Source of the DNA: an uncultured Verrucomicrobiota bacterium
GTDB taxonomy: Bacteria; Verrucomicrobiota; Verrucomicrobiia; Palsa-1439; CAZOTB01
Length of the DNA: 64,000 nt
Reading direction: 5' to 3'
Assembly (NCBI GenBank): GCA_964582645.1
Contig: CAZOTB010000006.1
Location: 1,972-65,971 of the forward strand
A model generated the notes under the pieces. The model saw nothing but the letters and a program-made list of their open reading frames with translations, ran no database searches and was not told the origin of the DNA. Shown here one piece after another: positions 5,088-50,954 of this stretch. The translations under genes were made by a program, and so were the position numbers. Positions within the stretch are counted from its first letter, which is position 1. Each line of letters opens with the position of its first letter.

Positions 5088-5156
5088 CAAGCTGAAGCTG
5101 GTACTCCAACCGATAGCTGCTCGATGGCTTCCGTTGGGAGTACAAGCTTCAGCTTG
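5088..5156. repeat. Hairpin repeat element, copy 1 (25-nt arms caagctgaagctggtactccaaccg / cgttgggagtacaagcttcagcttg, 19-nt loop)
   Basis: Imperfect inverted repeat 66 bp upstream of the BNR gene start. Homologous to the elements at 19917..19985 and 41548..41616. Confidence 0.85.
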
Positions 5157-5200
5157 CGTTTGGTCGGGCTCGGAAAAAAACCGAAATGTGCCCGACGAGG

Positions 5201-26230: not shown

Positions 26231-26617
26231 CTAGCGAGAGGCGGTCCGACAAAAGTCGTCTGCACGCTCGATCATTCGATTCAGCATTGCGCCGACGTGT
26301 TGCCATCGGTCGTCCATTTCCCGGTGCTGCGCCAGGGTCAGGTAACCGCAGTCCACGGCGTGATCAAGCCAAGCCTGTGTTTCCATTGCTTCACCCAGAG
26401 CATCGTCAATCTTGCTGATAAAGGACGCCGGATACCGTCGGCGCGCCCAAGCTTCCGCGATCATCGCATTCACCGCGCGGGAGGAACGCCGTATCTGGTC
26501 GGTGAGTGAGTACTTCTCTTCGGGCGGAAATCCGTTTGTGATCAAGAATACCTTCTTTGCTTCTGCACGGGCGAGCTTGTAAACCTCCAAGTCCCGAAAA
26601 CTCCGAATAGCCGGCAT
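26231..26617 (-). CDS. Four-helix-bundle protein (23S rRNA intervening-sequence protein family, PF05635/TIGR02436-like)
   Basis: FRDLEVYKLARAEAKKVFLITNGFPPEEKYSLTDQIRRSSRAVNAMIAEAW matches the family signature. Strong RBS ggaaggag. Inserted between MoxR and DUF58. Confidence 0.85.
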   Translation of the reverse strand: MPAIRSFRDLEVYKLARAEAKKVFLITNGFPPEEKYSLTDQIRRSSRAVNAMIAEAWARRRYPASFISKIDDALGEAMETQAWLDHAVDCGYLTLAQHREMDDRWQHVGAMLNRMIERADDFCRTASR

Positions 26618-27674: not shown

Positions 27675-27890
27675 GATTTCAAGATTCTCCTATGGGACAA
27701 ACGCGGCGAGTTAAACATGGTGACGCAGAGAATGCCAAGCTTGAACTCCCTCGTCACCGAAACTTTTTTTCCTTCTATTTCGTGACACGATTTTCTGTTT
27801 GCCGTTTCGCAAAGGCCTTAGCCTGCGTCAAATCCAGAAGCGGGTCGTCAAGGCTATTTTCGTTTGTTTTCCTCAGCAAAAAGAAAGATT

Positions 27891-27917
27891 TTGACATGGG
27901 GGGGGGGCACCTATGGT
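27891..27917 (+). promoter_or_regulatory. Sigma70-like promoter candidate with a G10 homopolymer in the spacer (TTGACA - t G10 cacc - TATGGT)
   Basis: -35 hexamer at 27891-27896, -10 at 27912-27917, 15-nt spacer containing the G10 tract 27898-27907. It lies about 60 bp upstream of the lipoprotein start in an AT-rich intergenic region. Confidence 0.35.
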
Positions 27918-27976
27918 AGAGCCCACGACAGTTCGGAAAAGCGATTGTGAAACGACAAGGACAAGGCGCCGTCGGG

Positions 27977-29656
27977 ATGAGAGCGGTAATTTCAGTTCTG
28001 CTCGCGAGCGTGCTTCTCGTGGCGATCAGTGCATGCACCACGAGCAAGCAAGCCAAGCGTGAGAAGCAGCCCACGACTGAAACAGTGTTCGCGCTCCCGG
28101 AAGGTTTGCACGCGGAAGCGCAGTACCGGCCGGGAGTGGACTCCTCGAAATACCCACTGATCGAAGTCTATCTGCACAATCAAACGAGCCAGCCGGTGGA
28201 ATGGAAGCGTGCCTCTCTGAACGGGAACCAATTGCAGATGCTGACGAACGGGGTCGTGTGGTTCCAGTTCTATCCGACGGAGAAGGCCAATCCCGGTGAG
28301 ACGGTTCTCCTTCAAGTCAATCTGGTGGCGAATCCCCGGAACGAACAGACGGTTCGCTGTGAGACACAGGATGGGCGAATCATCGAAGTCAAACTGCCAC
28401 CCTTCTCAATACCTGCGGTGAAGATGGACGCGGTTACGTTCAGTTGGGACTTCCGTCAGATGTTCGTCGCGTATTCTCCGGGGAGCTACTTCGACTGCTC
28501 TCAGTTGGTGCCCTCGCGTGTTCTCGTGAATGGCGTGGATGCAACCGCAACTTCGGAACTCCTTTCCCCGCCCACTCTGAAAGAGCCTGCCTTTCTCCGA
28601 GTGAAGCTGCCGGAGCCGACCGAGCAAGGCCGCCCTATGTACGTGCGACTGGAGTTGAGGAATGGGATCGTGCGCCACTGTTTGGTTCGAGCTTGGAAGG
28701 GGTTTTTCCTCGACGCGTTCGCGGTGGACGAAAAGAATGCCAAGCTTCGCAAAGCTCTCGGGCTCGATCATCGCCCATTCGGCCGCCACTGCGGTGGCGA
28801 TCCAGCGTGCAATGATCTCGCGCTGGGCAGAAAGTACGGGGCATCCATGGATTCAGTCTTGGAAGAAAGAAAGGCTTCGTGGAAAGAAAAGGATAATCGC
28901 CTCAGCTACGTCTCCCTCTGTACAGCGGCCACGCCAAACGCAGCCTATTCCATCTATGGGCAGTGCATGGACGCGGCCCAAGCCAACCCTTATCGTCTGC
29001 ATTGGTCGCAAGAGGAAAAGTTTGTTGAAACGGAGGAGCGATACCTTCGCTGGTGCCGGCAGGCTGCTTCCCCTCGCCCATGGTTCTGGTTTCCAGAAAC
29101 CTTTGAAGTGCACGGTCGCATTCTGGAAGCCGAGGAGTTGCGCCTGCTGGCGTGCGCAGCGGTCGGCCAAGGGGTAAAAGGCATCAATTATTTCTGCCAT
29201 TCCTATGCTGGACCCCCTCCAGTCCATGGCTTCGATAAGAGTCCGAGGCTGCTTGCCGAAGTTAGAACTCTCAACCGTATGTTCAAAAAATACGAGCACA
29301 TCTTTTCGACCGCCATTCCAATTTCAGACGAAAGTTCTACCGATCAAGCGGATAAGATGGCTGTCAAGACACTCTGGTGCGGAGACCCATCTGGAGTCTT
29401 GGTCGTAATTCGCAACATGGACTATTCGACGGACCGCACTCCCAACGAGTACGGCTCCCATGCCCGATTCCATTGGAAGCCTAATAAAGAGCCGGCAAAA
29501 ATCAGTATTGGTAAGCCCATCTGGATGCCGCTGTGCAAGCATGGCTATGCAACTGATCTGCTAAGTGGAAGACAGGTTCATTACACCGTGAAGGATGCCG
29601 CGATATGGTTGGACATTCAACTGGACCTAGCGAGTCTCATTTTCATCCCGAGCTAA
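27977..29656 (+). CDS. Lipoprotein, function unknown (about 560 aa)
   Basis: MRAVISVLLASVLLVAISAC lipobox signal peptide with AAGGA upstream of ATG 27977. The track starts at an upstream GTG (27947). GC is lower than the flanks. Confidence 0.75.
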   Translation: MRAVISVLLASVLLVAISACTTSKQAKREKQPTTETVFALPEGLHAEAQYRPGVDSSKYPLIEVYLHNQTSQPVEWKRASLNGNQLQMLTNGVVWFQFYPTEKANPGETVLLQVNLVANPRNEQTVRCETQDGRIIEVKLPPFSIPAVKMDAVTFSWDFRQMFVAYSPGSYFDCSQLVPSRVLVNGVDATATSELLSPPTLKEPAFLRVKLPEPTEQGRPMYVRLELRNGIVRHCLVRAWKGFFLDAFAVDEKNAKLRKALGLDHRPFGRHCGGDPACNDLALGRKYGASMDSVLEERKASWKEKDNRLSYVSLCTAATPNAAYSIYGQCMDAAQANPYRLHWSQEEKFVETEERYLRWCRQAASPRPWFWFPETFEVHGRILEAEELRLLACAAVGQGVKGINYFCHSYAGPPPVHGFDKSPRLLAEVRTLNRMFKKYEHIFSTAIPISDESSTDQADKMAVKTLWCGDPSGVLVVIRNMDYSTDRTPNEYGSHARFHWKPNKEPAKISIGKPIWMPLCKHGYATDLLSGRQVHYTVKDAAIWLDIQLDLASLIFIPS

Positions 29657-29663
29657 AGGAGGA

Positions 29664-31478
29664 ATGCTGATGACAGCGATGACGAGAAACTTGAGCATTA
29701 AGTTGCGACACTATGGATTTTTGTTGAGTCTTGTGCTCGTCCAACATTGCTCTGCGCAGACTCCCGACGTGAGCCCGGACATCTCCATCTCTGTCGGCGG
29801 CGTTGCGCGAAGCCAACTTTGTGTGGGCGAACAAGCCACGTTCAGCGCCGAGAATCAGTGCACTGCTGATCCCGATGGCCCAATCAACTATTCTTGGAGT
29901 GGCGCAGTGTCGGGGACAAATCAAACCGTTTACGGATCTTTTACAACGACAGGGAACCGGACGGCTACAGTGAATGTCCATTACAATACAGCCGAGGGCG
30001 GCGTGTACGATGGTTCCACCAATTCACAGTTTACCGTTAAGACAGTATCTTCAATCACCTATGCGAAGAGCGCTGTTTGCCTCGGACAACAAGAACCTTT
30101 CCAGGTGGCGACCGATCCTGCAAATTGCTATGAAGGGATAACGATCACCGTTCCTGATGGCGAGCTCATATCCTACAGTACAAGTACGGGAATCGCCCAA
30201 GTAAAGTTGAACGTTCTTTCCACCGACAATAATGACAAGAAAACCGTCACGGCGAAGTGTGGGGATCCGTCCTGTTCAACCTGCACAGGCCAGGCAAGTA
30301 CTCAAGTTGTCGTGGCTAAAGTGGCCTCTATCACACGGTCGCCATCGGATGGTCCGACTACTGTTTGTAAGGATGAATTTCAGCAGTTTCAGGTGGAAAC
30401 CGAGCCAACCGGACATTACGATAAACCCATTGTTGTTTCCGCATTCGCGTCAGTTAATTATGATACGAATTCAGGGATTGCAACGGTGCACTTTACGAAT
30501 GCATCTCAGACCGCCGTTAATATTTGGGCGAGTTGCGGTCCTGACTCAAAAAACATCGAAACGACAGTGGTAGATGTCGGACCCATTTACGCGACATGCA
30601 CAAATAGAGTTGGAGCCGATGGTGGTCAGATAGGCTTTATGGTGACCCCAACGCCCTCAAATAGGCAGATCGAATGGCGCTACGAAGGAAGCTCTCAAGT
30701 GTGGACCGGTACTACTTTCACTGTTACAGCCCCCTCGGGAAATGGTTTCTTCACAGTGACAGCAAGCGACAAAGACTTGCCGACGTGCTCCGAGACTTTC
30801 GAGGTCGAGGTCGTGGGACATTGTGGTGCGAACTATCCGTGGGAAAATTTCGCCTACGATTCGACCGAAGAAGGAAGGCCGGCCAATTGCGGCGGAGACC
30901 TAGCTTTGTTTGAGCCGCCTCCATTTGCGGTTGCGATCACGGGCAATTACACTGCCTGCCATGGAGTGATCAGTAACACCACTGCATGGTTTCCCCGCAT
31001 AGTCGCACTCGGTTTCACCTATTACAAGGATGTGTGTTGCGGCAGTAGGACCGCTATTACAAACGCGACCATGGTCACGAGCAACGACTTCTGCAATGGC
31101 ATCTTGGCTGAACTTGAACCCCCTGGAGCGTATACAAATTACTGCGCGCCGACGTGCCTCGAAGACTACGTCAGCGTGGGCAACGATGCCTACTGGGCAA
31201 TCTGTACCAACCAGTGGGCGGTGGGAGAAGCTATAGTGGAATCCAAGACGAAGTCATTCGTCTGCATCCAGCGCGACGCCGTCGATGAGGCAGAACGTGA
31301 CCTGGAGGACGATGTCAACAGCGCATTACAGAGTGTCTACAACAACATTATCGCTCAATGGAATAGTCAGTTTGCTACGATTGAGGAAGCCGCCTACGAC
31401 GCTGAAGAGGCCTGCTTGCAGGCACTATCAAGCGAGATCGAACAAAAGGCCTATATTAATGGTTGGACGTGCCCTTGA
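29664..31478 (+). CDS. Secreted Cys-rich protein with internal Ig-like repeats and a distinct C-terminal Cys-rich domain ending ...WTCP
   Basis: Signal peptide present. About 85-aa internal repeats. GC about 47-50%. The C-terminal about 100 aa are homologous to the fragment at 34141..34671. Confidence 0.75.
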   Translation: MLMTAMTRNLSIKLRHYGFLLSLVLVQHCSAQTPDVSPDISISVGGVARSQLCVGEQATFSAENQCTADPDGPINYSWSGAVSGTNQTVYGSFTTTGNRTATVNVHYNTAEGGVYDGSTNSQFTVKTVSSITYAKSAVCLGQQEPFQVATDPANCYEGITITVPDGELISYSTSTGIAQVKLNVLSTDNNDKKTVTAKCGDPSCSTCTGQASTQVVVAKVASITRSPSDGPTTVCKDEFQQFQVETEPTGHYDKPIVVSAFASVNYDTNSGIATVHFTNASQTAVNIWASCGPDSKNIETTVVDVGPIYATCTNRVGADGGQIGFMVTPTPSNRQIEWRYEGSSQVWTGTTFTVTAPSGNGFFTVTASDKDLPTCSETFEVEVVGHCGANYPWENFAYDSTEEGRPANCGGDLALFEPPPFAVAITGNYTACHGVISNTTAWFPRIVALGFTYYKDVCCGSRTAITNATMVTSNDFCNGILAELEPPGAYTNYCAPTCLEDYVSVGNDAYWAICTNQWAVGEAIVESKTKSFVCIQRDAVDEAERDLEDDVNSALQSVYNNIIAQWNSQFATIEEAAYDAEEACLQALSSEIEQKAYINGWTCP

Positions 31479-31500
31479 TAACCGTGAAGAGGAGAAGAAT

Positions 31501-32313
31501 ATGAGCACAAACAGTATGCTAGACAGCGCCAACGGTCAGAGGCTAGTTGCGAGTTTAGTTGCGTGTTTCAGCCTTCTGGGATTGGGAGCCGGGGATTTAT
31601 CCGCCCAATCCCACGGGGGAATGAACAAGTCAACTCCTGAGAAGCAGTTGCTTTCAATGGGATTCGGAACATCCGCAGAAGACCTGCGTAACGCCCTGGG
31701 CAATTCCAACTTGCTGGCCAGGGTCTTCGCTACCCAATTTATCAAAGAGCAAAATGATAAAGCCTTCACCTCTGACATAAAGAAGCTCTTGGACGACAAG
31801 GAGTCGTGCGTTCGTGTTGAAGCCGCAATGGTATTGGCTCCATGGGGAGAAGCAAAGGCTTCGGAGGTCCTTCGTTCGGAGTTGCAGACTTCCGAAGATG
31901 TGAATGTAAGATTGCGTGCAGCGGGGGCACTGGCTGATGTTGGTGATAGCAGAGGGTTCGGCTTGGTCAAAGCCACCTTGCTTGATGAACGCTCTCCCGT
32001 GCAAACGTACGCCGCAACCATGATACAGAAGTTCGCCCGCTTCCGCGGCCAAGGCATAGACAGCCTCGCCGTTCAACTGCAAGCAATGGACATCGCTGTT
32101 AAGAAGGCCGAGAAGAAAGAAAGTGAGGGTGCGGTCAGACAAGCAGCATGGCTGTTCAGAGTCTTGGCGCATGACTTGGAGCAATCCGAGGACAGCCGGG
32201 CGGTGGCCAAGTTGCATGAGGCTTCCAAGTCGAAGGATCCCAAGATTCGTTTTGCCGCTGAACAAAGCCTGAAAAGAAGCGAGCAGAAGCAGGCTAGCGG
32301 GAAACAGCATTGA
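31501..32313 (+). CDS. Secreted HEAT/PBS-lyase-like repeat protein
   Basis: RBS GGAGAAG followed by ATG 31501. Signal peptide LVASLVACFSLLGLGAGDLSAQS. HEAT-like repeats. Paralog of 34727..35530. Confidence 0.75.
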   Translation: MSTNSMLDSANGQRLVASLVACFSLLGLGAGDLSAQSHGGMNKSTPEKQLLSMGFGTSAEDLRNALGNSNLLARVFATQFIKEQNDKAFTSDIKKLLDDKESCVRVEAAMVLAPWGEAKASEVLRSELQTSEDVNVRLRAAGALADVGDSRGFGLVKATLLDERSPVQTYAATMIQKFARFRGQGIDSLAVQLQAMDIAVKKAEKKESEGAVRQAAWLFRVLAHDLEQSEDSRAVAKLHEASKSKDPKIRFAAEQSLKRSEQKQASGKQH

Positions 32314-32363
32314 GATGGCTTAAAGCCTCAAAGCATTGAACCCAATGCGAGACGCGTCTCGGC

Positions 32364-32870
32364 TTGAACCGCTCGGGGCGCGGTTATACCATCGCGGGCC
32401 GGATGAGATGCTTGCGGATGAAGCAGTTTATAGCGTCGGCATGGACGAGGTCGAAATGCCTGACCAGCAAACTTAGCGAAATCCTCAAACACAACAATGC
32501 CTCTGGGTGGGCAACTTTTCTCGTGTCACTCGTGATGGTATACGCCCTCCTCCAGACCAACAGGGCCATCAAGCAGACCGCTGAGTCTATCGAACTCCAG
32601 AGGTCTGCTAACTCTAACGCTGCCGTACAACTGCGAATCGAGCAGGATACGAGGTTATACCCGGAACTAGAATGCCGGTGGGACACCATCAGCGGCCTCG
32701 TCCTCCGCAACGTGGGTACCGCGCCTGCGACGAACATCAATCTTCGCACTGCCGTTGTCTGCGTCACGTCCAATGTTTCATACGACTTCCGAGCGCGGCG
32801 GGGTCACATCTTCAATTTTCACAAAGGAATTTTCCGTCCCGCCAATCCTCAGTCGGTTTGTGACAATTGA
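32364..32870 (+). CDS. hypothetical protein with one TM helix
   Basis: ORF with a hydrophobic segment WATFLVSLVMVYALLQT. Low-GC island context. Confidence 0.4.
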   Translation: MNRSGRGYTIAGRMRCLRMKQFIASAWTRSKCLTSKLSEILKHNNASGWATFLVSLVMVYALLQTNRAIKQTAESIELQRSANSNAAVQLRIEQDTRLYPELECRWDTISGLVLRNVGTAPATNINLRTAVVCVTSNVSYDFRARRGHIFNFHKGIFRPANPQSVCDN

Positions 32871-32989
32871 AGATCAGACCCCGGCTGGCCCTGCCGAGCC
32901 GTGTGGCCTTTCGAAGATGCATTCGAAGATGCACTGGGAGAGGATCACGAAGGTTTCACAGCTTGCTACGTTTCAAGCGCTGATTCGTG

Positions 32990-34134
32990 GTATTCTCCGC
33001 GCGGTCATAGATTGAGCTTCTGAGAGGCTGGCGTGGACAGCGCAAATCCAGTACAATCAGATCGAGTTGGTCGCTTGACGATCATGCTTCAACTGGAATT
33101 CCGTTTCGAGGACATCGAGTTCTTCGAACGCCAGCGGTTCGAGCATCCTCACCCCTGGCTGCAACGCAAGTTTGAAGCCCTCTTCCTCAAAAGCCACCAC
33201 CTGCCGCATCAGACCATCTGCGAACTGTGCGGGATTTGTGGCAACACCTTGCGCCGCTACCTCATCGAGTACCAGCAGGGGGGCCTCGCCCACGTGCAGG
33301 AACTACCCTTTCACCGTCCCTCCAGCGTCTTGGAATCGCATCGCGGCTTCCTGCGAGAGGAGTTCACGCTGCGACCGGTGGCTACCGTCCGAGAGGCGGC
33401 GGCGCGCATCGCTGAACTCACCGGCGTGCGCCTGTGCCTGACCCAGACCCGGGATTGGTTGCATCGGCTCGGTCTGAAGTGGCGCAAGGTGGCACCGATC
33501 CCGGCCAAGGCCGATCCGGCCGCCCAAGCCGAGCTCAAGGCTCAGAAGCTCGAACCGCGTCTGCAGGAGGCGCGGGCGGGCCAACGGGCGGTCTATTTCG
33601 TGGATGCGGCTCACTTTGTCTATGGGGCATTTCTGGGGTGTTTATGGTCGCTGACGCGGGTGTTTGTGCGCACGCCGTCCGGTCGGCAGCGCTTCAACGT
33701 GCTGGGGGCGCTCGATGCGCTGACGCACGAACTGATCACGGTGACCAACGAGACGTATATCAACGCGCTGAGTGTGTGTCAGTTGCTGCGACAACTGGCG
33801 GCGCAAGCCGGGGGCAAGGCGGTGACCGTGGTGCTGGACAACGCGCGCTACCAGCACTGTGCGCTGGTGGAGACGGAGGCGGCGGCGTTGGGGATCGAGT
33901 TGCTGTTTTTGCCGCCGTATTCGCCGAACCTGAACTTGATCGAGCGGTTGTGGAAGTTTGTGAAGAAGCGCTGTTTGAACTCGAGGTATCATGCAGATTT
34001 TGGGGTGTTTCGGGGTGCGATCCAGGAATGTTTGGCGAAGATTGGAACCCGCCACAAAGCGGAGCTCGATACGCTACTGACCCTCAATTTCCAGACGTTT
34101 GAAAAAGCTCAATCTATGACCGCGTGAAGAATAC
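32990..34134 (+). mobile_element. IS630-family insertion sequence (about 1.15 kb) with 29-bp imperfect terminal inverted repeats
   Basis: TIRs gtattctccgcgcggtcatagattgagc (32990..33017) and gctcaatctatgaccgcgtgaagaatac (34107..34134) share 26/29 identity. A single transposase ORF lies inside, and the element's GC is higher than the surrounding island. Confidence 0.8.
33033..34127 (+). CDS. IS630/Tc1-mariner family transposase (DDE_3)
   Basis: Hallmark LLFLPPYSPNLNLIERLW motif. An N-terminal HTH region is present. The start may be the internal Met at 33084. Confidence 0.85.
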   Translation: MDSANPVQSDRVGRLTIMLQLEFRFEDIEFFERQRFEHPHPWLQRKFEALFLKSHHLPHQTICELCGICGNTLRRYLIEYQQGGLAHVQELPFHRPSSVLESHRGFLREEFTLRPVATVREAAARIAELTGVRLCLTQTRDWLHRLGLKWRKVAPIPAKADPAAQAELKAQKLEPRLQEARAGQRAVYFVDAAHFVYGAFLGCLWSLTRVFVRTPSGRQRFNVLGALDALTHELITVTNETYINALSVCQLLRQLAAQAGGKAVTVVLDNARYQHCALVETEAAALGIELLFLPPYSPNLNLIERLWKFVKKRCLNSRYHADFGVFRGAIQECLAKIGTRHKAELDTLLTLNFQTFEKAQSMTA

Positions 34135-34140
34135 ATCCGA

Positions 34141-34671
34141 GTGACAGGCATAAAAATCAAAGTTTTTATCAATGTTTGTCGGCCACCGCCGACGGCTGGT
34201 GTACCTTTCATAGAGGGAGCCGGCGATCCACAGATTAACTCAGGTAACGTTTGCTCTGTTCTTTGCAGCTTTACCCCTAATCAGACTGGTTGCGCACCGT
34301 ATTCGAACTTTGCTTCTGAGGACTGTCTCAAAGCTCATGAAGAACAACATTTTCAGGATTTTGACGATGAATTTGACTTTATCTGGGCGTATTATGAAGA
34401 TGAGATCGAAGACCTCCACGTCCCTTTTGCCTGTACAGACATGGATGACCCTGCGGAGGCTGTTGAAGCCATCTTTTGGTCCGAAGACGGCAACGGCATA
34501 GGGGATCAACTATCCGAAGCGTACCTCGCTGCTGCTGACATTTTCAATGATGCCACTTGGCGGGCTCAATCTGAAGTCAACGCAATCGCAGCAGAAAACA
34601 CTTGTTTATCAGGACAGCGGGCGCAAATCCAGCAGCGATTTGGCCAACCCAGTTGTCCGAGCTGCCCGTGA
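34141..34671 (+). CDS. Orphan C-terminal module homologous to the C-terminus of 29664..31478 (GTG-initiated at the IS630 right end, no signal peptide)
   Basis: Shared pattern CAP..., F[VA]C..D, A.W..Q....AA..E..CL......Q......CP, ending SCPSCP versus WTCP. The reading frame is closed by a stop 24 nt upstream inside the IS TIR. Confidence 0.45.
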   Translation: MTGIKIKVFINVCRPPPTAGVPFIEGAGDPQINSGNVCSVLCSFTPNQTGCAPYSNFASEDCLKAHEEQHFQDFDDEFDFIWAYYEDEIEDLHVPFACTDMDDPAEAVEAIFWSEDGNGIGDQLSEAYLAAADIFNDATWRAQSEVNAIAAENTCLSGQRAQIQQRFGQPSCPSCP

Positions 34672-34726
34672 AATAATGCTACAATACAATCTGCAAAGAA
34701 TGAGCGGAACAGAAGGGAGAATACAA

Positions 34727-35530
34727 ATGGAACTTAGTAGAGGACGAACAGTAACTATTTCTATTTCGTTGGTTACTTTGTGTCTCGCAATTAACGCAGT
34801 GAGTTTGCATGCCCAAACACCGGCAGGCAGGGGTGACGACATGCCCGTACCAACCTCAGAGGAGCAACTCAAGGCGAAGGGATTCGACACGACGGAGGAA
34901 GGACTTCGAAGTGCCCTGAGCACTTCGAATACGTTGACCCGCGTTTACGCGGTTCGAGTTATCAAAGAGAAGAACATCAAATCACTCATACCGGATCTGG
35001 AACTGCTGCTCGACGACAGTAAATCGAGGACTAGGGCCGAGGCCGCTATGGCGCTCGCCAAGTTGGGGAGCCCTAGAGGGCTCCCGTCCCTAAAAATGGA
35101 AATGAAAACATCCAAGGAACAGGGCGTCAAGCTTGATGTTGCAGGAGCACTCGCTGAGTTAGGCGACAGCAGTGGCTATTCTGTTGTCAAAGCCTGCCTG
35201 TTGGATAGTAAGAACCTTGGGTTGCAGCACATGGCCTCGCACCAAGTACACAAATTCTCTGGTCTCAAGGGGGGAGCAGACGCACAATCGCTTTACCTGC
35301 TAGGCATGGATGCAGCGGGTCGCCAGGCGAAAAGCGAGAACGAGAAAGAGGCCAAATCAGCCCGTGTGTTGTTTAGACTGATGGTGAGCGGGCTTGGGAT
35401 GGTTGGTGATGAAGGGGCAATGCCAAAACTACAAGAAATGACCCAATCGGATGATCCTGAACTGCGTGAGGCAGCCGAAAGAGCTTTGAAAACCATCGAG
35501 AAGCGAGTCGAAAGTAAAACGAAGAAATGA
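34727..35530 (+). CDS. Secreted HEAT/PBS-lyase-like repeat protein, paralog of 31501..32313
   Basis: RBS AAGGGAGAA followed by ATG 34727. Signal peptide TVTISISLVTLCLAINAVSLHAQ. About 35% identity to the first HEAT gene, visible by eye. Confidence 0.75.
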   Translation: MELSRGRTVTISISLVTLCLAINAVSLHAQTPAGRGDDMPVPTSEEQLKAKGFDTTEEGLRSALSTSNTLTRVYAVRVIKEKNIKSLIPDLELLLDDSKSRTRAEAAMALAKLGSPRGLPSLKMEMKTSKEQGVKLDVAGALAELGDSSGYSVVKACLLDSKNLGLQHMASHQVHKFSGLKGGADAQSLYLLGMDAAGRQAKSENEKEAKSARVLFRLMVSGLGMVGDEGAMPKLQEMTQSDDPELREAAERALKTIEKRVESKTKK

Positions 35531-35612
35531 GTTTAGGATGGGTTGTAATTATTGAAAATCTGATCGACTGTCATGGACTCATCCCAATCCATTCCACACA
35601 TTCGATTGTTTC

Positions 35613-35993
35613 TCACAGTTGATCCTTCTTTTCTGAAACTTGAGCAGACTCTTTCACGGAAGCTTGTTCATCGGCGATACTTGGGCGTTTGTTTATCTTA
35701 GTCTGGCATTCTTCCGTCACGGTCTGGCGTGTTTCTGTCGCAGTCTGGCGTTCTTCCGTGAGAAATTGGCGTTTGTCTTTCATACTTTGGTCAGCTTTCG
35801 ACACACTCTGGCCGTTGTTCTTAACCCAGATGTCTTTGTCTTTACCGCTTTTGTGCGCGGGTGCGACGGATTGACCGTGGCGAGGCCGGCGTAGCCGCGG
35901 TTCTGGGCAGCGCGCGAGTTTACAGATTTGTCTTCCTGGAAGGGGAAATTCCCCTTCACCTTTATCCTCTCCCGCGCTGGGGAGAGGAAACAA
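35613..35993 (-). CDS. Possible small heptad-repeat protein (RQTATETRQTVTEECQTK...) spanning the 21-bp array; coding status uncertain
   Basis: Longest ORF across the array. The alternative plus-strand ORF 35640..35894 is also open. Confidence 0.25.
   Translation of the reverse strand: MFPLPSAGEDKGEGEFPLPGRQICKLARCPEPRLRRPRHGQSVAPAHKSGKDKDIWVKNNGQSVSKADQSMKDKRQFLTEERQTATETRQTVTEECQTKINKRPSIADEQASVKESAQVSEKKDQL
35680..35826. repeat. 21-bp degenerate tandem repeat array (about 7 units, consensus GTCTGGCGTTCTTCCGTCACG)
   Basis: Units at 35680, 35701, 35722, 35743, 35764, 35785 and 35806. It would encode 7-aa periodic peptides on either strand. Confidence 0.8.
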
Positions 35994-36269
35994 AGCTCTT
36001 CGTGTGACAACCGCTCAGTCTGCGGGTTCGATTTCGACCACCCGCACCTCCTTCGCGAGATGGTCTCTCCAAAATGTTATCAGGAATTCGTGGTGCAATT
36101 TGACATCCAATTCGCGTCCCGTGTCGTCCTTCTCCGTGAAATCACCGGCCACAGCCTGGCTCGCTTTGAGTGCATCGAGGAATTGAAAAAAGCTTGCGTC
36201 GTTTCACGCCTCGTATCGAGAGCAGGAACTGCAGCGCGTCCTCGTCAAGCACAAGCTTCCAAGCCCGAC

Positions 36270-36482
36270 TCATAGGCCCGCAGCCCGCAATTCCCTGTCG
36301 AGCCGCTTCGCAGTATCAAGGGTTACCTTCCCACCGGCATCCATTCGACGCATGCGCGCGCCGAGCTTGGCCTGGTGGGTCGGATCATCCATTCTTGCGA
36401 GATGCTTGAGGTACGCGCTCGCAAAAAGCCGATTCTCACCGCTCATCTTGTCAATGGACTTTCTGATTTGCGTCGTGCTCAT
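36270..36482 (-). CDS. hypothetical small protein (70 aa)
   Basis: Short ORF in the AT-richer tail of the island. Followed by another sub-60-aa ORF at about 36018-36131 with only a GTG start. Confidence 0.3.
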   Translation of the reverse strand: MSTTQIRKSIDKMSGENRLFASAYLKHLARMDDPTHQAKLGARMRRMDAGGKVTLDTAKRLDRELRAAGL

Positions 36483-40548: not shown

Positions 40549-41663
40549 CGAAAACCAATCGTCACCGAATGCGGCACCGGAGCGGGCTCAAGGGCAGCTT
40601 CGTCGGCATTCGAACGGCGCGCCCAGGCCCGTGATTGCACGAAACCGATGTAGCCCCAATGCCCGCCCTTGACGACGTGGAAGGCATTCGTGCCCGGCAA
40701 CACGGCTGGGACAACACTCGGAGCAGGAACAACATTCGTGGCCGCGACCACATTCGTAGCGGCAACGGGCGGCACATTCGTGCTTGGTTGCGGGGGCAAA
40801 ACCGTGACGGCCGTCCACTCATCCGCGGTCCATTCCGAGACGTTGCCGGCCAGGTCCATCACGGCGAACGTGCTGCGGTCGTTGGTGGTGGTGCCGCAGG
40901 GTCGCGTGGCCCGGTCGCCGCGCTCGGCGGTATTGGCGTTGTCGGGATTCCACTGCTCGCCCCATGGAAACGACCAGTTGTTCGTCCCGCGCGCAGCTCG
41001 TTCCCATTGCACCTCGGTGGGCAAGGCTTTGCCGGCCCACTTCGCGTACGCCATCGCGTCGTCCCACGTGACGCAGGTGACCGGATAATCCGCCGCATCA
41101 TAAATCGGATCGGCGCTGGTGAACCACGTGCCATTCGGCCACGTGAACGCCTGATAGAACCAGTGTGAGAACGCCGCCAGCGGCACGGGCGCGGCGTGTT
41201 TGGTGGCGTCCATGAATTTCTTGTAGCGGCGATTGCTGACTTCGAAGCGATCCATGAAGAAACCGTTCACGAAGATGTTGGTCGCAGGCAGCACGTACTT
41301 GAAAAGCTCTTTCCCGGCGACGCGCACGTGACTGGCGGAAAGGTCGGCGCCGCCGGCAGGTTTCACCCCGGTATTGATCAACCCGCCATCGGCACCGGGA
41401 AACGATCCGGGCGCGAGCCCGATGATGCATTCCCCGGGCGGCACAAAAACCATTTCGGCGCCGTCGGTTTGGGAGATGTAGAAATCGCCCTGAGCGACGA
41501 CGCCGGGAGGAAGCGTGGCCGGTTTCTGCGCGAGCGAAGGAAACGAGCACGACAGAAGCAAGCTGAAGCTGGCACTCCAAACGAGAGCCTGAAAAGCCGA
41601 TGTTTGGAGTACAAGCTTCAGCTTGCCGGCCCCGCTCGCTGTTGACCCGTCTCGCCGCCTCAT
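40527..41663 (-). CDS. Formylglycine-generating enzyme (FGE-sulfatase / SUMF1) family protein
   Basis: GNVSEWTADEW, KGGHWGY and IGFRCV signature motifs. The start is uncertain because hairpin copy 3 spans the N-terminal codons. Confidence 0.85.
   Translation of the reverse strand: MRRRDGSTASGAGKLKLVLQTSAFQALVWSASFSLLLSCSFPSLAQKPATLPPGVVAQGDFYISQTDGAEMVFVPPGECIIGLAPGSFPGADGGLINTGVKPAGGADLSASHVRVAGKELFKYVLPATNIFVNGFFMDRFEVSNRRYKKFMDATKHAAPVPLAAFSHWFYQAFTWPNGTWFTSADPIYDAADYPVTCVTWDDAMAYAKWAGKALPTEVQWERAARGTNNWSFPWGEQWNPDNANTAERGDRATRPCGTTTNDRSTFAVMDLAGNVSEWTADEWTAVTVLPPQPSTNVPPVAATNVVAATNVVPAPSVVPAVLPGTNAFHVVKGGHWGYIGFVQSRAWARRSNADEAALEPAPVPHSVTIGFRCVIPAP
41548..41616. repeat. Hairpin repeat element, copy 3 (arms gcaagctgaagctggcactccaaacg / tttggagtacaagcttcagcttgc, 19-nt loop)
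   Basis: Homologous to the elements at 5088 and 19917. The arms overlap the signal-peptide codons of the FGE-family gene. Confidence 0.9.
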
Positions 41664-44600
41664 TGATCTTCCGCCAATCGGCGATAGTAGCGCTTCAACG
41701 CTTCCTCATCACGCTTGGGAAACTCCTCCTGCCGCGGGTTGAGGACGAGTGGGTTGGCGCTCTTGCTCAAGCCAACGTCGAAATCGAACGCTGCGCCGGG
41801 CGCGATCTCGCGATACACCCGCTTGAGCTTGTCGAGCGCCTGCTCCTGCATGTGCCAGAGCTTCTCGCTCGGCCCCTTGCGGACTTCTTCTTCGATCTGC
41901 CGCATCAAATCCACCCCTTTGAACCAATCCGCCGACGGCGTGAACATCTGCTCGAATTGCTTCGTGACTTCCTCCGCGCGTTTCACCAGTTGCGCCTGAC
42001 GGTTCGCCAGGTCGCGTTTCAGTCCTTCCGCGCTCACGTCCATATCCTTCGAGCCCTTGCCTTCCTGGATGATGTCCGCCGAAGCAATGCCCGCGTACTG
42101 CGCGGCCTCGCTCGCTCGTGGCTTGCCGAGTTCGCCCTCGCCTTTCTCGTGGCCCGCGAGCTTTCCGCCCGTCGCCGTGGTCGGGTCGGCGCCGGGATCG
42201 CCCTCGACCTTTTCGTCCTGAACGAAGCCCTTCTGGTCCGGCGCGTTGAGTCCTTCGCCGGGCCGACCCTTCATGTCCTTGGCCTTGTCCATGCCGAGTT
42301 CACCGAAGGTCGGCCCCTGCCGTCCGCTGCGGGAACGGCCGCCGATGTTGAGCGACGCGGGCATTTTGTTGCCGGTCTTGCCGCGCATGGCATAATTGCC
42401 CATCGGCGCATCCATGTCGCCCACATCGCCGGTGTCTTTCATGTCGGTGTTCATCTCCATGAAACTCGTGATCATCTTTTCGCGCAGCCGTTCCTGCTGG
42501 TCAATCAGGTCGCCGATCAAGTCCTCCATCATCTCGGGCTTGGCGTCCTTCTTGATGTCCTTCGGGCCGCCGCGCGCGCCCTCGAACTGCGACCAATCCT
42601 GGTTGCGCGCCGAGTCCTTGCCGGGTGTGAGATGGTACTTCGACGGGTCCACTTCCTTCGGGTCGCGGTACTCCTGATAGCTGGCCGCCATCTTCTGTTG
42701 ATATTCGAGATTGTTCCAATCGGCGTTCTTGATCTCTGCTTTCGCCTGCTCGGCTTGCCGGGCGGCGTCCTGCAAGCGCTTCAGATACTTCGCAATCTCG
42801 TCCGCCGCCATCTCGTCGGCAAGGGGTCGCTCCGGCACGTTGGTTTGTTTGCTGGGCGCAGATTTCTTTTCCGTACCCTCCCTGGCAAGTCCCTCGGCGG
42901 TCTTGAGCGCCTTGTAAATCGACGCCTGCGCGTCCGAGCCAACCGGTGCCTTCTTCAACTCCTCCCGCAGACTCGAGGCGATGGACTCGGCGACCTTGGC
43001 GAGTTCGCTGCGGATCATCGCGAGCAGCGATTGGAGGCTGTCCACCGCGTGTGTCTCAGCTTGCAATGCCGGTGCCCATTGCTGCGCGCGCAACGACGCC
43101 TCGGCGGTCTGCATCACGGGCGGGATGTTTTTCGCTTTGAACGCCGTGTTGAGATCCATGAAGACTTTCGCCGCGGCGATCTTCTCCGCCGAGAGACGGG
43201 CGGTCGTGTCGTCGAGTCGTTTCTGCAAATCGGCGAGCCAGACGGACGCCTCTTTCTGCCGATCAGCCAACTTGGTCGTGCCTGCCGCGTCGGGCGCGGA
43301 GGCATTGGGCGGCGTCTTGGTAACGAGATCCTGTTCCACGGCAAGAATCTTCTCCAAGCCGGCCACGACCGTCTGGAGGGCAATCTCCGTTTCGAGATTG
43401 GAAGCTTGTTCAAGCAACCCTTTCAATGTGTCCAGAATCACGTTCTGCACCTGGAGACTCGCCTGCAGCTTTTCGCGTCGCTCGGTGAGTTCTGTGAGAC
43501 CCAAGCCCTGCGTCAGGTGATCGGCGGCCAGAACCATCTCGCGTTGGGTGAGTCCATCGAGCGCCTCGCGGATGCCGTTGAACACCCCCACCTCGATTCG
43601 CTTGCTCAAGTCGGTCGTCTTGACGCGGATTGTGATCTGGTTCGTTGCCGCGTTCTCGAAATGCTTCATGGTGAGCGTGGCGAAAGCGGCGTCGGACCAC
43701 TTGGTGATCTTGTCGGCCTCAAAATCGGGCGCGATGGTCTTGCAGATGTCCACGTTCGCCTGCTGCAACTGGATCAACTCCGTCAGCCCGCGCTTCAGCT
43801 CCGCGGCGGCGAGCAACTTCGCATCCACCAAATCGCGTGTGGCAACCAGGCGCACTCGCACCGGCTGGCTGCGCGACGGCTTGCGTTCCTTGTCAGGGTT
43901 GAAGTCAGTTGCTTCGGCCACGACCGTCCATGTCTCGCCGACCGCGCCGAGATCGGTGACGGCCACGGCGTGCGCTTGCTCCATGTTGTGCTGTGTCTTG
44001 CTGCCCGGCTGGGTCAGTAAGACCTTGGGGGCATCGGCCTCGTTCTTCCACGCGAGCAGGCGAACTTCGCGCAACCCGAAATCGTCCTCAGCCGTGAGCG
44101 TGAGCGATTGCGCCTGATCAGGAGTGACGGCGATGTCTTCCTTGGGTTTGAGTTCCACCGATGGCAGCCGGTCGGGTTGCACTTTGAAGTCGCGTTCGAT
44201 CGGGAGCGTATTCTTGAAACCACGGGTGTCCCGAAATGTGAGTTGGTAGGCGCCGCTTTGCTCGATTGGTCCTTCCCACTCAAAGGTGTCGGGACGACTC
44301 CCCTTCATCGTGACGCTCTTCGCAGCCGGCAGTGTGATCTCCGCCCGCGACAACGCCCTGTTCGCGCGCACGGTCAACCGTACCCGGCTGCCTTGCGGGG
44401 CAAGGACGTCGCCGTGACCTTCCTTCTCCGTTTTCTCGGGGAGACCCGTCCATTCGGGATACTGATAGCCGACGGTGATTCCCGCGATATCCGGGCCTTC
44501 GACAGCGCGAATGCGGAACCGCTCCGAGCGTGCGTCGCCCGCGCGAACGGAGTAGGTGATCGTCTGGCGCACATCGAGAAACGTGTGGGCGTACTTGTTC

Positions 44601-45370
44601 GGCGCGCTGGGAGAAAGATCGAGGTGTTGCCAATCGCCACCACGGGAGAAATGAAGGGTGACTTTGTCCGGCGTCTTTCCGCCCGTGGTGATCTGCACCT
44701 CGGCAACGCTGCCCATGGGGACTTCCATCGAGCCCGGCTTCACCTCGAGCGTGGTATCGGTGATTGGCTGGATGTTCGATAGCGGACGTGCGAGCCGGGC
44801 GGTCGCGTTGCTGAATTGCTTCGGGAACATCTTGGCGTAGCCGACGATCAGCACCGCGATCAACACAAAGGCCCCGAGCCATTGCGCGGCGCGCTTGATT
44901 GGCAGCGCCCGCTCCAGCGGTGGCCCTTTCTGGAGCGCATCGCTGTTTTCGGCGAGCGCTTTTTCGATCGCGTCTCCACGTTCCGTGCCGCCAAGTCTGC
45001 CCAGTTGCACCGAGTTGATGATGCGGTTCTGTCGGTCGCCGAGGCGGCCTTCGAGGTGGACCGCCACCGCTTCGTCGGTGTACGGCTGACGCAACGGCAC
45101 CACCACGCGCATGACGAAGAGCCAGATGGAAAAAGACACGAACACGACGAGCAAGAGCAGCCGCACGGCCCAGGGAAGATGCAGCCAGTTGTCGAGGGCA
45201 GCCGCGCCCAGGAAGATTCCAAACACGGCGGCGAGCGCGATGCCGAGCCCTTCGGCGAGGGTCAACAGCCGCCAGCGCTTCCGCAAGCGGCGGATGTGGG
45301 CGAGGAAATTGCCAATCGAATCAGGCTCTGAACTCATTCCGTGTAACAGAGTAAACGCTGCATTGGACAC
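41660..45370 (-). CDS. Large membrane-anchored coiled-coil protein (1236 aa), possibly DUF4175-like
   Basis: Two N-terminal TM helices. Long Ala/Glu/Lys/Gln-rich coiled-coil and low-complexity Gly/Asp/Lys segments. Continuous ORF with coherent codon usage. Confidence 0.8.
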   Translation of the reverse strand: MSNAAFTLLHGMSSEPDSIGNFLAHIRRLRKRWRLLTLAEGLGIALAAVFGIFLGAAALDNWLHLPWAVRLLLLVVFVSFSIWLFVMRVVVPLRQPYTDEAVAVHLEGRLGDRQNRIINSVQLGRLGGTERGDAIEKALAENSDALQKGPPLERALPIKRAAQWLGAFVLIAVLIVGYAKMFPKQFSNATARLARPLSNIQPITDTTLEVKPGSMEVPMGSVAEVQITTGGKTPDKVTLHFSRGGDWQHLDLSPSAPNKYAHTFLDVRQTITYSVRAGDARSERFRIRAVEGPDIAGITVGYQYPEWTGLPEKTEKEGHGDVLAPQGSRVRLTVRANRALSRAEITLPAAKSVTMKGSRPDTFEWEGPIEQSGAYQLTFRDTRGFKNTLPIERDFKVQPDRLPSVELKPKEDIAVTPDQAQSLTLTAEDDFGLREVRLLAWKNEADAPKVLLTQPGSKTQHNMEQAHAVAVTDLGAVGETWTVVAEATDFNPDKERKPSRSQPVRVRLVATRDLVDAKLLAAAELKRGLTELIQLQQANVDICKTIAPDFEADKITKWSDAAFATLTMKHFENAATNQITIRVKTTDLSKRIEVGVFNGIREALDGLTQREMVLAADHLTQGLGLTELTERREKLQASLQVQNVILDTLKGLLEQASNLETEIALQTVVAGLEKILAVEQDLVTKTPPNASAPDAAGTTKLADRQKEASVWLADLQKRLDDTTARLSAEKIAAAKVFMDLNTAFKAKNIPPVMQTAEASLRAQQWAPALQAETHAVDSLQSLLAMIRSELAKVAESIASSLREELKKAPVGSDAQASIYKALKTAEGLAREGTEKKSAPSKQTNVPERPLADEMAADEIAKYLKRLQDAARQAEQAKAEIKNADWNNLEYQQKMAASYQEYRDPKEVDPSKYHLTPGKDSARNQDWSQFEGARGGPKDIKKDAKPEMMEDLIGDLIDQQERLREKMITSFMEMNTDMKDTGDVGDMDAPMGNYAMRGKTGNKMPASLNIGGRSRSGRQGPTFGELGMDKAKDMKGRPGEGLNAPDQKGFVQDEKVEGDPGADPTTATGGKLAGHEKGEGELGKPRASEAAQYAGIASADIIQEGKGSKDMDVSAEGLKRDLANRQAQLVKRAEEVTKQFEQMFTPSADWFKGVDLMRQIEEEVRKGPSEKLWHMQEQALDKLKRVYREIAPGAAFDFDVGLSKSANPLVLNPRQEEFPKRDEEALKRYYRRLAEDQ

Positions 45371-47197: not shown

Positions 47198-47296
47198 AGC
47201 AACATTGTAGGAGCCGTTCCCCGAACAGCGAACGTGGAAGATCGCGATTCGGGGAACTGCTCCTGCGAGTGAAGTGCGGGCTTGGGCAAAAGGCAA

Positions 47297-47370
<74 letters not shown>

Positions 47371-47423
47371 ATCAACGGCGGCAGAATGGTAGATGGGGAA
47401 TGGGAAATGGTCAATCAGTTCCC

Positions 47424-48926: not shown

Positions 48927-50855
48927 CTATCGAACCGGCGCGTCCCCTTTCCCATCAATGAACGTCTGCAGCCAGAGTTCGAGTGTCACCAGCGCCCAGA
49001 TGCGGAGGCCGTAGTCTTCGCGGCCGGCAAGGTTGTCGTCCCAGATTTTGTTCACCATGGCCGGATCGAGAAAGCCTCGTTTCAGCAAGTGCGATTCTCC
49101 GATCAACTCGCGAATGCGCTCGCGGTACTCGTTGCGAATCCACGCGCGCACAGGGCCGCTGAATCCCGCCTTGCGTCGGCGCAGGATCGAGCGCGGCAGA
49201 ACCGGCTCGAGCGTCCGGCGCAGGATGTATTTCTGCTGCAGACCCTGCACCTTGAGCGTATCGGGGATTGAGAATGCGAGTTCGACGAACCGATGGTCGA
49301 GCATCGGAATGCGCACCTCAACCGAGCTGGCCATGCTGGCTTTGTCGGAGTAGGCGAGATTGAGAAAGGGCAGGAACGTCTTGAGATCGAGATAACAGAT
49401 GCGATTGAGGGGCGATAGCTTGGAAGCACGACGCAGGCAGCGCAGGTGCGTGCCATACAGTTCCTCGCGGCCCACGGCCTTTCCGAGCAACTGGCTCACC
49501 TCTTCGGGCGTGTAGTACGAACAGAAGCCGAGGTAGGAGTCCTCGAAGGCGAGGTCGGCGCTGCGGAGAAACTTTTTCAGGTTGCGCGTCGGCGCGTACA
49601 TGCGGGTGCGACTCGCGACGCTTTGCGTGGCAACATGGCCGCCCAGCAACCGACGCAGCTCGGCCGGCAATCCCCGATACTGCAATGCCAGTTTCGCCGC
49701 GAGGTGTCGCGGATAGCCGGCAAACAATTCCTCCCCGCCCACGCCCGCGAGCATCACCGTCGCCTTCTTGCGCGCCTCGCGACAGATGAGATAGGTCGAG
49801 ATGGCGGCGGGATCGGCGATTGGCTCGTCAAGATGCCACACCAGTTTCGGCCAGATGTCGAACCCGCCCGGGTCGAGGATGATCTCGTTGTAATCGAGCG
49901 GTTGGTTCAACTCCGCGGCAACGCGCGCGAACTTCACGTCGTCGGGAATGATGTCGAGCTTCAGGTCCTGCGAACGAAACCCGACCGTGTACGTGATGAT
50001 GGGAGTGGTGAGTTCGCGGCGCATCAACGTCAGGATCGCGCTCGAGTCCAGGCCGCCACTCAGGAAGGTCCCCACCGGCACATCGCTGACAAGGCGACGC
50101 TTGATGGAATTGCGCAGCAATGAGACGAGCTTTTTCTGATAGTTGGGCGTGGTGAGCGGCTCCTGCGGTTCGAGCGGCACATCCCACCACTCGCGGATTT
50201 CGACGTGGCCATCCTTCCATTTGAGCCAGTGCCCCGGCGGGAGCTTTGAGATGCCCCGAAAGAGCGTGTCGGGATCGGGCACCCAGAGGAAACTCAGGTA
50301 GCGGCTCAGATTTTCCGTGGCGAGTTCGCGTCGCACTCCCGGCAGTTGCAAAAGCGCCTTCGCTTCCGACGCGAACGCGATCCCGGCATCCGGCAGGCTT
50401 GCGTAGTACAACGGTTTCTCGCCGAGCCGGTCGCGAGCGAGGAACAGGGTGTGTTCCTGCTTGTCCCAGATGCCGAACGCAAACATGCCGTTGAATCGGT
50501 CCAGACACGACGCGCCCCATTGCCGGTAGGCGTACAACAACACCTCGGTGTCGCAGGTCGAGCGGAACTGAATCCCCCGAGCAGCGAGGACGTCACGGAC
50601 ATCCTGAAAGTTGTAGATCTCGCCGTTGAACACGATCCAGTAGCGCCCGCTGTCGTCCGACATGGGCTGATGTCCCGCGGCGGACAGATCGAGGATGCTC
50701 AGTCGCCGATGCCCGAACCAGACGTGGTAGTTCGCGTTGCGGAAATGCTCGACGCCGGCGTCATCCGGGCCGCGGTGCTGAAGCATCGACAACGCGGCAC
50801 GGAAGGTCTGCTCTTCCGTGTTGCTGCGTGTGATCCAACCGAGAATGCCGCACAT
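48927..50855 (-). CDS. asnB: Asparagine synthase (glutamine-hydrolysing) family amidotransferase
   Basis: N-terminal MCGILGW (Cys2 nucleophile), a GATase-2 domain and an Asn-synthase domain with SGGLDSS. Confidence 0.9.
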   Translation of the reverse strand: MCGILGWITRSNTEEQTFRAALSMLQHRGPDDAGVEHFRNANYHVWFGHRRLSILDLSAAGHQPMSDDSGRYWIVFNGEIYNFQDVRDVLAARGIQFRSTCDTEVLLYAYRQWGASCLDRFNGMFAFGIWDKQEHTLFLARDRLGEKPLYYASLPDAGIAFASEAKALLQLPGVRRELATENLSRYLSFLWVPDPDTLFRGISKLPPGHWLKWKDGHVEIREWWDVPLEPQEPLTTPNYQKKLVSLLRNSIKRRLVSDVPVGTFLSGGLDSSAILTLMRRELTTPIITYTVGFRSQDLKLDIIPDDVKFARVAAELNQPLDYNEIILDPGGFDIWPKLVWHLDEPIADPAAISTYLICREARKKATVMLAGVGGEELFAGYPRHLAAKLALQYRGLPAELRRLLGGHVATQSVASRTRMYAPTRNLKKFLRSADLAFEDSYLGFCSYYTPEEVSQLLGKAVGREELYGTHLRCLRRASKLSPLNRICYLDLKTFLPFLNLAYSDKASMASSVEVRIPMLDHRFVELAFSIPDTLKVQGLQQKYILRRTLEPVLPRSILRRRKAGFSGPVRAWIRNEYRERIRELIGESHLLKRGFLDPAMVNKIWDDNLAGREDYGLRIWALVTLELWLQTFIDGKGDAPVR

Positions 50856-50954
50856 GATTCAATTCTGACTCCAGAAAAGATTAGCCGGGAACGCAGGGGA
50901 CAGAAAGCGCAAAGATCGAAGGAGATGCCGGGTTCGGGACTATGTGGTCGCCGA

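Follow-up and report, generated by a model that had tools for sequence, protein, structure and literature searches.

A rare exported cysteine-rich domain with a HEAT-repeat partner gene, and a second copy interrupted by an IS630-family element, in an uncultured Verrucomicrobiota bacterium

Organization of the exported gene block

We analysed 64,000 nucleotides of an uncultured Verrucomicrobiota bacterium (GenBank assembly GCA_964582645.1, contig CAZOTB010000006.1, positions 1,972 to 65,971 of the forward strand; hereafter, the window), focusing on a block of exported genes on the plus strand at about 27.9-35.5 kb of the window. Its genes make up a rare exported unit of three, namely a lipoprotein gene, the gene of a signal-peptide repeat protein with a C-terminal Cys-rich domain (gene A) and that of a HEAT-repeat protein (HEAT-A), after which the latter two occur once more (Table 1). 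A first-pass annotation, made from the sequence without database searches, had read the same DNA as a duplicated two-gene cassette with an orphan C-terminal module, in the layout of polymorphic toxin/immunity cassettes, and every open reading frame (ORF) that it had placed in the block was present. The explanation we favour, at a probability of roughly 55%, is an exported domain with a dedicated HEAT partner, the second copy of which was broken by an insertion sequence (IS).

Table 1 Features of the exported gene block, numbered from the first nucleotide of the window.
Feature	Position	Strand	Description
Lipoprotein gene	27977..29656	+	559 aa; lipobox ...AISAC; opens the conserved three-gene unit
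Gene A	29664..31478	+	604 aa; signal peptide, tandem repeats, C-terminal Cys-rich domain
Domain copy A	30816..31475	+	~220 aa, predicted disulfide-rich alpha/beta domain; LEDYV at the HExxH position (31158-31172)
HEAT-A	31501..32313	+	270 aa; Sec-exported partner of gene A; Pfam HEAT_2 E 8e-12
150-aa ORF	32418..32870	+	N-terminal signal-anchor helix; ends at TGA 32868-32870 (VCDN*)
Domain B, 5' part	32856..32990	+	...FTACYVSSADSW, left of the IS element
IS630-family insertion	32991..34133	+	TA duplication, inverted repeats, transposase ORF 33033-34127
Domain B, 3' part	34132..34671	+	Holds the 176-aa ORF 34141-34671; HEEQH at 34336-34350
HEAT-B	34727..35530	+	267 aa; intact Sec-exported partner of the broken copy; Pfam HEAT_2 E 1.4e-18

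Homology of the two domain copies

Compared pairwise, the C-terminus of gene A and the 176-aa ORF of the second copy were only marginally similar, with 23% identity and an E value of 0.004 in BLASTP, a probability of 32% in hhalign, and a Smith-Waterman score of 66 against 33 ± 5.3 for shuffled sequences (z = 6.2; 0 of 2000 shuffles scored as high). The decisive evidence came from a profile of nine family sequences lacking the ORF, which matched it at E 1.6e-30 over positions 56-217 of 218, so the homology proposed in the first-pass annotation stands. The pattern of shared residues on which that proposal was based missed the main difference between the copies, which is that HEEQH in copy B occupies the same columns as LEDYV in gene A.

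An IS630-family element divides the second copy

The transposase encoded between the two gene pairs matched the Pfam families DDE_3 (E 2e-25) and HTH_33 (E 2e-10). It lies between 30-nt inverted repeats (32990-33019 and 34105-34134) that are 93% complementary and unique within the window, and a TA dinucleotide flanks each end of the element (32991-2 and 34132-3). Duplication of a TA target is the habit of IS630 elements. Thus, all the defining features of the IS630 family, namely a DDE_3 transposase with an N-terminal helix-turn-helix (HTH) domain, terminal inverted repeats and a TA duplication, were found here, and the earlier placement of an IS630 between the pairs is confirmed.

The 176-aa ORF begins 7 nt past the right end of the element, and its match to the family starts at its very first residues; in the family alignment, it corresponds to about the last three quarters of the ~220-aa domain. 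When the element was excised in silico with one TA retained, ...FTACYVSSADSW was joined in frame through Y to IRVTGIKIKVFINVC. The restored junction, TACYVSSADSW-Y-IRVTGIKIKVFINVC, agrees with TACYDSSQDEWRIRVVSVQPKVYQNVC of the homolog P0006, which reads ITACYDSSQDEWRIRVVSVQPKVYQNVC at the position of the junction. Excision also brought back an invariant Cys and an invariant Trp column, both encoded left of the element. Before excision, the 5' part of domain B matched profile positions 44-56, stopping exactly at the IS boundary, whereas a single alignment spanned the junction (positions 44-217) after it, and the score against a profile built without any copy-B sequence rose from 97 to 123 bits. 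The element landed inside the domain coding sequence, since both frame and homology continue across it once excised, and the second of the two domain genes is a pseudogene. HEAT-B, the partner of the disrupted copy, is still intact.

The 176-aa ORF is therefore merely what remains 3' of the insertion, and there is no orphan tip. Its start was set by insertion into a longer coding sequence, and on this point the reading as an orphan C-terminal module does not hold. We also considered whether the fragment is still translated from the GTG at 34141 as a stand-alone module together with HEAT-B. Its 176 codons are open, HExxH is kept, and the identical arrangement occurs in several metagenome samples, but the first quarter of the domain is missing, and with it the beta-strands as well as the conserved columns of Cys and Trp. 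In addition, the fragment has no signal peptide despite the disulfide-rich character of the domain, no evident Shine-Dalgarno sequence precedes the GTG, and this codon is merely the first start after a stop codon inside the element. We consider translation of the fragment as a module scarcely credible. Every contig carrying the fragment also has the IS or breaks at it, and no IS-free (pre-insertion) allele was found among these contigs.

Upstream of the element, the restored frame meets the TGA listed in Table 1, three codons after the Cys aligned to the first invariant Cys of the family (column C3). The same TGA terminates the 150-aa ORF, which lies in the same frame. This ORF was probably the N-terminus of a former gene B of ~370 aa, which would now carry two lesions, the IS and the TGA. 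The succession of a full-length gene and an orphan tip, which the first-pass annotation had likened to CDI (contact-dependent inhibition) and Rhs loci, is thus an artefact of the IS630 insertion, probably plus a nonsense codon. For genome scans, the lesson is that where such a layout stands beside an IS, insertional truncation should be tested first.

The Cys-rich domain family

A profile search of 1.84 billion proteins with the C-terminal 220 residues of gene A found only eight cluster representatives, and a repeated word-indexed homolog search with alignment added no further members. Scans of genome contigs with alignments of the gene A domain and of the lipoprotein returned no relatives, and a scan of viral contigs returned nothing. 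In the metagenome-contig collection, neither the A-type HEAT alignment nor the back-translated pattern CxxxHExxHxxEWxxxFxxxW had a match; the pattern does match the loci L008 and L009 locally, so the collection does not contain these contigs. None of the ten family members, counting both window copies, matched Pfam at E≤1, the domain proteins of the window had no match in NCBIfam, and no PDB sequence matched the family profile significantly (best E 0.14). Judged by these searches, the domain is an undescribed family; the first-pass annotation had likewise been able to place it in no recognised family.

An AlphaFold2 (AF2) model of the P0006 domain, built from a 10-sequence alignment, was confident (predicted local distance difference test, pLDDT, 90.4; predicted template modelling score, pTM, 0.83), whereas a model of the gene A domain itself, for which the alignment held two sequences, was unusable (pLDDT 38.7). 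The order of elements in the P0006 model is a beta-sheet (strands 16-18, 28-31, 39-48 and 53-69), a short helix, a long helix (113-143), a strand and two long helices. This model matched none of the solved folds, and a viral fold library also gave nothing.

HExxH followed by xxEW is present in six of the ten members (copy B, P0005, P0006, P0008, P0009 and P0010), and both histidines are lost in the others (gene A, P0002, P0004 and P0007). In the P0006 model, HExxHxxEW sits at the start of the long helix 113-143, directly after an invariant Cys. P0009 and P0010 lack the two Cys of columns 30 and 87, P0008 lacks those of columns 112 and 185, and the clade of gene A has gained two, in columns 92 and 140. 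Because the Cys columns come and go in pairs, they point to disulfide bonds and hence to an exported domain.

What all family members have in common is the C-terminal domain; their N-terminal architectures vary, giving lengths of about 250 to 604 aa. This is the reverse of the variable C-termini on a conserved body that the first-pass annotation had proposed to look for among relatives. Two homologs deviate from a complete gene: P0006 is apparently split from an upstream 91-aa ORF with a signal peptide by a frameshift or an assembly error (L009 2718-2993 and 2948-4660), and P0009 (L014 862-1671) stops prematurely within the domain. Other family members may be decaying or mis-assembled too.

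HEAT partners and conserved gene order

HEAT-A and HEAT-B share 39% identity over 262 aa (E 6e-53), and both pass the Pfam HEAT_2 cutoff. Direct reading of the sequences found Sec-type signal peptides on both, ending ...SAQ or ...HAQ. Hence, the two-gene cassette occurs twice with paralogous and exported HEAT proteins, as had been claimed. With the HEAT proteins encoded downstream of P0004 and P0002, HEAT-A shares 49-56% identity. A HEAT gene of one subfamily, with a signal peptide, lies directly downstream of the domain gene in 9/9 loci examined; those with a visible downstream HEAT gene were L001, L007, L008, L009, L010/L011, L012, L013, L014 (its start) and both window copies. HEAT-A and HEAT-B are nearly each other's closest relatives (about 40%), whereas few pairs of domains are as far apart as theirs (23%). 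The impression from two pairs that domain and HEAT protein co-vary as a cassette was dropped after a mirror-tree test, which was not significant (r=0.22).

The lipoprotein gene is conserved as well. L008 (49% identity), L012 (46%) and L001 (tail only) have a homolog immediately before the domain gene, making four loci with the window, and a gene of this kind accompanies the ~600-aa forms (gene A, P0002, P0004 and P0005); the shorter family members have no lipoprotein gene. The 559-aa lipoprotein of the window had no match in Pfam, NCBIfam or PDB sequences.

Several loci hold more HEAT modules than one per domain gene. L008, the locus of P0005, has a second HEAT gene of A type (4500-5479), 42-50% identical to HEAT-A and to the HEAT protein of L001, which follows an unrelated, cytoplasmic-looking 172-aa ORF and has no Cys-rich domain gene beside it. 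The HEAT partners in L010 (11624-12838), L011 (6878-8287) and L007 (1443-2708) are of double length, with two tandem modules per polypeptide, and the domain gene of L007 is also preceded by the tail of a HEAT gene of 84% identity. An IS200/605 transposase adjoins the locus in L009. The small ORFs beside the cassettes (150 aa in the window, 172 aa in L008 and 171 aa in L009) were compared as possible relatives and rejected, being unrelated to one another and to the domain. On the minus strand of L010 (15043-21240), 3.6 kb from the P0010/HEAT pair and on the opposite strand to it, a 2065-aa RHS/YD-shell protein (DUF6531, RHS_repeat, TEN_YD-shell) is encoded, which is probably coincidental.

A housekeeping role of the HEAT proteins as phycobilisome lyase or NblB, which the first-pass annotation had named as the finding that would speak against a toxin/immunity cassette, was ruled out by low NCBIfam scores (32-33 bits against a cutoff of 300 for NblB, and 14-20 bits against 330 for CpcE). 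The likeness is generic to HEAT repeats, and both proteins are exported. PADLOC gave a generic HEAT-ARM match only.

Gene A is a mosaic

Gene A carries the signal peptide and the repeat region described for it, with at least three tandem beta-rich repeats of ~90 aa at about 29760-30575 (z=10.2 for repeat 2 versus 3 and z=4.5 for repeat 1 versus 2, against shuffles). A fourth segment of ~80 aa (30576-30815) has no detectable similarity to the repeats. Gene A had no Pfam or NCBIfam hit at E≤1, and its N-terminal repeats had no significant match among PDB sequences.

Its only non-self homolog in the word-indexed search was P0002 (L001 122-1918; 54% identity). Between the two, the domain is 75% identical and the N-terminal body 43-49%, and sliding windows placed the shift near residue 305, close to the start of the last beta-repeat. 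Fourfold sites show the same break, with identity at 16/74 (22%) in codons 31-304 versus 60/113 (53%) in codons 305-604 (Fisher p=1.8e-5), the N-terminal half being saturated and the C-terminal half unsaturated. The converse was seen with P0005, to which the N-terminal half is marginally closer at synonymous sites (26/66) than the C-terminal half (9/44; p=0.04). On the strength of these opposite patterns, gene A is a mosaic, and 3' halves appear to move among family members by recombination. The contrast of 75% with 43-49% also suggests strong constraint on the domain in the gene A clade despite the lost motif.

These data bear on the strict form of the toxin reading, in which gene A is a polymorphic toxin, and the 176-aa ORF with HEAT-B is an orphan C-terminal (CT)/immunity cassette for recombinational switching, as in CDI and Rhs systems. 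Such a model would account for the adjacent partner gene in every locus, for the recently acquired 3' half of gene A, and for the reciprocal layout of L008, where an HExxH-type main gene has an extra A-type HEAT gene downstream; furthermore, toxin domains with HExxH exist, and HEAT repeats are a documented immunity class, Imm-HEAT (PMC3482391). Against this, the 5' end of the fragment was made by the IS630 insertion, with frame and homology running across the excised element, and blastn found no DNA homology between the two cassettes that could serve as recombination arms. In gene A, the only trafficking or scaffold features among those tested are the Sec signal peptide and the unclassified ~90-aa repeats. 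Pfam searches found no trafficking, RHS, FHA, PAAR, LXG or pre-toxin domains and no known toxin families in gene A or the family members. The C-terminal domain is constant on variable N-termini, the HExxH motif is missing from gene A, and Imm-HEAT goes with the all-alpha Ntox34 rather than with a Cys-rich domain. The strict model fails four of its five defining tests, and we regard it as very unlikely. What survives of the polymorphic-toxin reading is the recombination of C-terminal halves; a displaced CT module, homology arms and a toxin family do not.

Chromosomal setting

The block is the sole plus-strand gene cluster (27750-36300) in a run of minus-strand genes, and its GC content is 0.50-0.55 (0.44-0.59 over the whole of 27750-36300) compared with about 0.62 in the flanks. 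The low GC content and the lone plus-strand cluster would fit a horizontally acquired block placed between a MoxR/DUF58 operon and a PKD/TPR gene. Neither flanking repeats nor a tRNA gene was found bordering the block, the only tRNA gene being at 47296-47371, and a scan for promoters and terminators gave fewer sites than in shuffled sequence. The genes around the block are the MoxR/DUF58 operon and genes for a fucosidase, the PKD/TPR protein and an FGE-sulfatase protein, and glycan-degradation genes (fucosidase, DUF4838/CBM9 and FGE-sulfatase) are abundant in the neighbourhood.

Three further features were recorded in the window. A gene for a 128-aa four-helix bundle, located between those for MoxR and DUF58 (26231-26617, minus strand), matches 23S_rRNA_IVP and, weakly, bAvd, an accessory protein family of diversity-generating retroelements (DGR); the assignment was taken from the annotation of the identical contig L004. 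A 1236-aa ORF without a Pfam hit (41660-45370, minus strand) coincides with a strong AT-skew excursion of -0.28 (bin 42001-44000). A second excursion (+0.18) lies at 50-52 kb (bin 50001-52000).

Interpretation

The genomic anatomy is solid, and the function of the pair is what we infer from it. The domain and the HEAT protein would come together extracytoplasmically as a dedicated one-to-one complex, because they are strictly adjacent, separately exported and co-duplicated. The ancestral domain, as kept in copy B and five homologs, would bind metal through HExxH(xxE), located on the first of three bundled helices, and would act as an enzyme. Exported as well, the HEAT protein may serve as its cognate binder or inhibitor, much as an immunity protein does for an effector, a role to which we give slightly less than even odds. 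Family members would swap 3' halves by recombination. An ancestral metal enzyme with a binder or inhibitor is suggested by HExxH(xxE), the solitary and fused HEAT copies, the patchy rarity, the island context and the recombination of 3' halves. The extra partnerless HEAT gene of L008, the fused double HEAT proteins of L010, L011 and L007 and the IS200/605 neighbour in L009 likewise hint at a conflict system, and an effector-immunity-like function of the pair is possible. Gene A, the only intact copy in the genome, would be a probably non-catalytic binding derivative, since its clade lacks both histidines yet the domain and the partner are strongly constrained.

Several observations weigh against this explanation. 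That the clade without HExxH has kept its HEAT gene speaks against a pure toxin-immunity logic, and the conserved upstream lipoprotein is unusual for effector-immunity pairs. The modelled domain is not of zincin fold, so HExxH may be non-catalytic. The identities of domains and HEAT proteins were uncorrelated across 8 pairs (Mantel r=0.22; 780/5000 permutations at least as high), and there is therefore no co-evolution (mirror-tree) signal. The 3' segment recently shared with P0002 does not visibly reach into the HEAT gene, the first 108 codons of which have a fourfold identity of 7/25. Finally, profile positions 1-43 did not align detectably in the restored gene B, and the TGA and the 150-aa ORF may not belong to it.

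Some of these observations fit a cooperative envelope complex, in which the lipoprotein, the repeat/Cys-rich protein and the HEAT protein form a periplasmic or surface structure, for instance for adhesion or substrate capture, with the HEAT protein as a subunit or chaperone. The three-gene synteny including the lipoprotein is kept in the window, L001, L008 and L012, and the clade that lost HExxH still has both the HEAT gene and a strongly conserved domain. Moreover, no toxin family or fold was recognised, including the zincin fold, co-evolution between domain and HEAT protein was not detected, and glycan-degradation genes are nearby. Partnerless extra HEAT copies and fused double HEAT modules count against such a structure, as do the very patchy distribution, the low-GC island beside mobile elements and the lack of the lipoprotein gene in the shorter family members. 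We regard a cooperative complex as a tentative alternative of some weight, although not the one we favour.

A bolder version of the favoured explanation, an exported domain with a dedicated HEAT partner, would make the domain a family of secreted effectors with a new fold and metal dependence (HExxHxxE), found in bacteria resembling the PVC (Planctomycetes-Verrucomicrobia-Chlamydiae) superphylum, neutralised in the producer periplasm by an exported HEAT immunity protein and diversifying by exchange of 3' modules. The gene A clade would then be an inactivated "pseudo-effector" kept for another role, and HEAT-B and the solitary HEAT gene of L008 would be orphan immunity genes. Taken as a whole, we find this version rather unlikely. 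If the pair is an effector with its inhibitor, the known tools of bacterial antagonism would gain both an enzyme of new fold and a periplasmic immunity protein of HEAT type, in a poorly studied lineage with natural catalytic-motif-plus and motif-minus variants to compare. Function aside, a confidently modelled family that has no Pfam entry or solved-structure match, together with its invariant partner, is a clean target for structural and binding work.

Comparison with known systems

The disruption of the second copy resembles gene disruption by IS630/Tc1-mariner elements in the type of transposase, the inverted repeats, the TA duplication and the broken reading frame, and nothing about it is unusual. 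The locus shares with CDI (CdiA-CT/CdiI) and Rhs orphan modules a large exported protein with a small partner gene, a second C-terminal piece downstream with its own partner, and 3' halves that appear to recombine among members of the gene A family. It differs from them in that the "orphan" arose by IS630 insertion into a complete gene and in having no homology arms. Furthermore, no TPS (two-partner secretion), FHA, RHS or VENN features were found here, and there is one homologous C-terminal family rather than a set of unrelated toxins.

Pairs of an exported effector and a periplasmic immunity protein include the amidase/immunity pairs of type VI secretion systems (T6SS) and colicin M with Cmi. 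As in these pairs, both products here are exported, the genes are strictly adjacent, solitary partner genes occur, and the context is mobile and patchy; unlike them, the locus has no linked secretion-system genes, the enzyme motif is missing from the intact copy, and a lipoprotein gene is conserved upstream.

The HEAT-type immunity class Imm-HEAT is paired with Ntox34, an all-alpha domain with GNxxD and WxCxH motifs found on RHS proteins (Zhang et al. 2012, PMC3482391). That pair likewise places a HEAT-repeat gene beside the C-terminal module of a secreted protein, whereas the domain described here is modelled as alpha/beta, carries HExxHxxEW in its motif-bearing members and gave no sequence match. 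The zincin toxin domains (Tox-MPTase1-5, HopH1 and ALF-type) resemble it in their helical HExxH, with a beta-sheet before and helices after, and in a conserved Glu/Asp following the motif. In contrast to these, our domain has no Pfam zincin match and is disulfide-rich; HExxH, which falls on helix 113-143 of the P0006 model, is present in the six motif-bearing members and not in gene A, and the zincin fold itself is absent from the model. Set against these systems, the ordinary part of the locus is a paralog disrupted by an IS630 element, and what is unusual is the exported domain, which is very rare and undescribed, is confidently modelled without matching a solved structure, always has a HEAT partner and is divided into motif-plus and motif-minus members.

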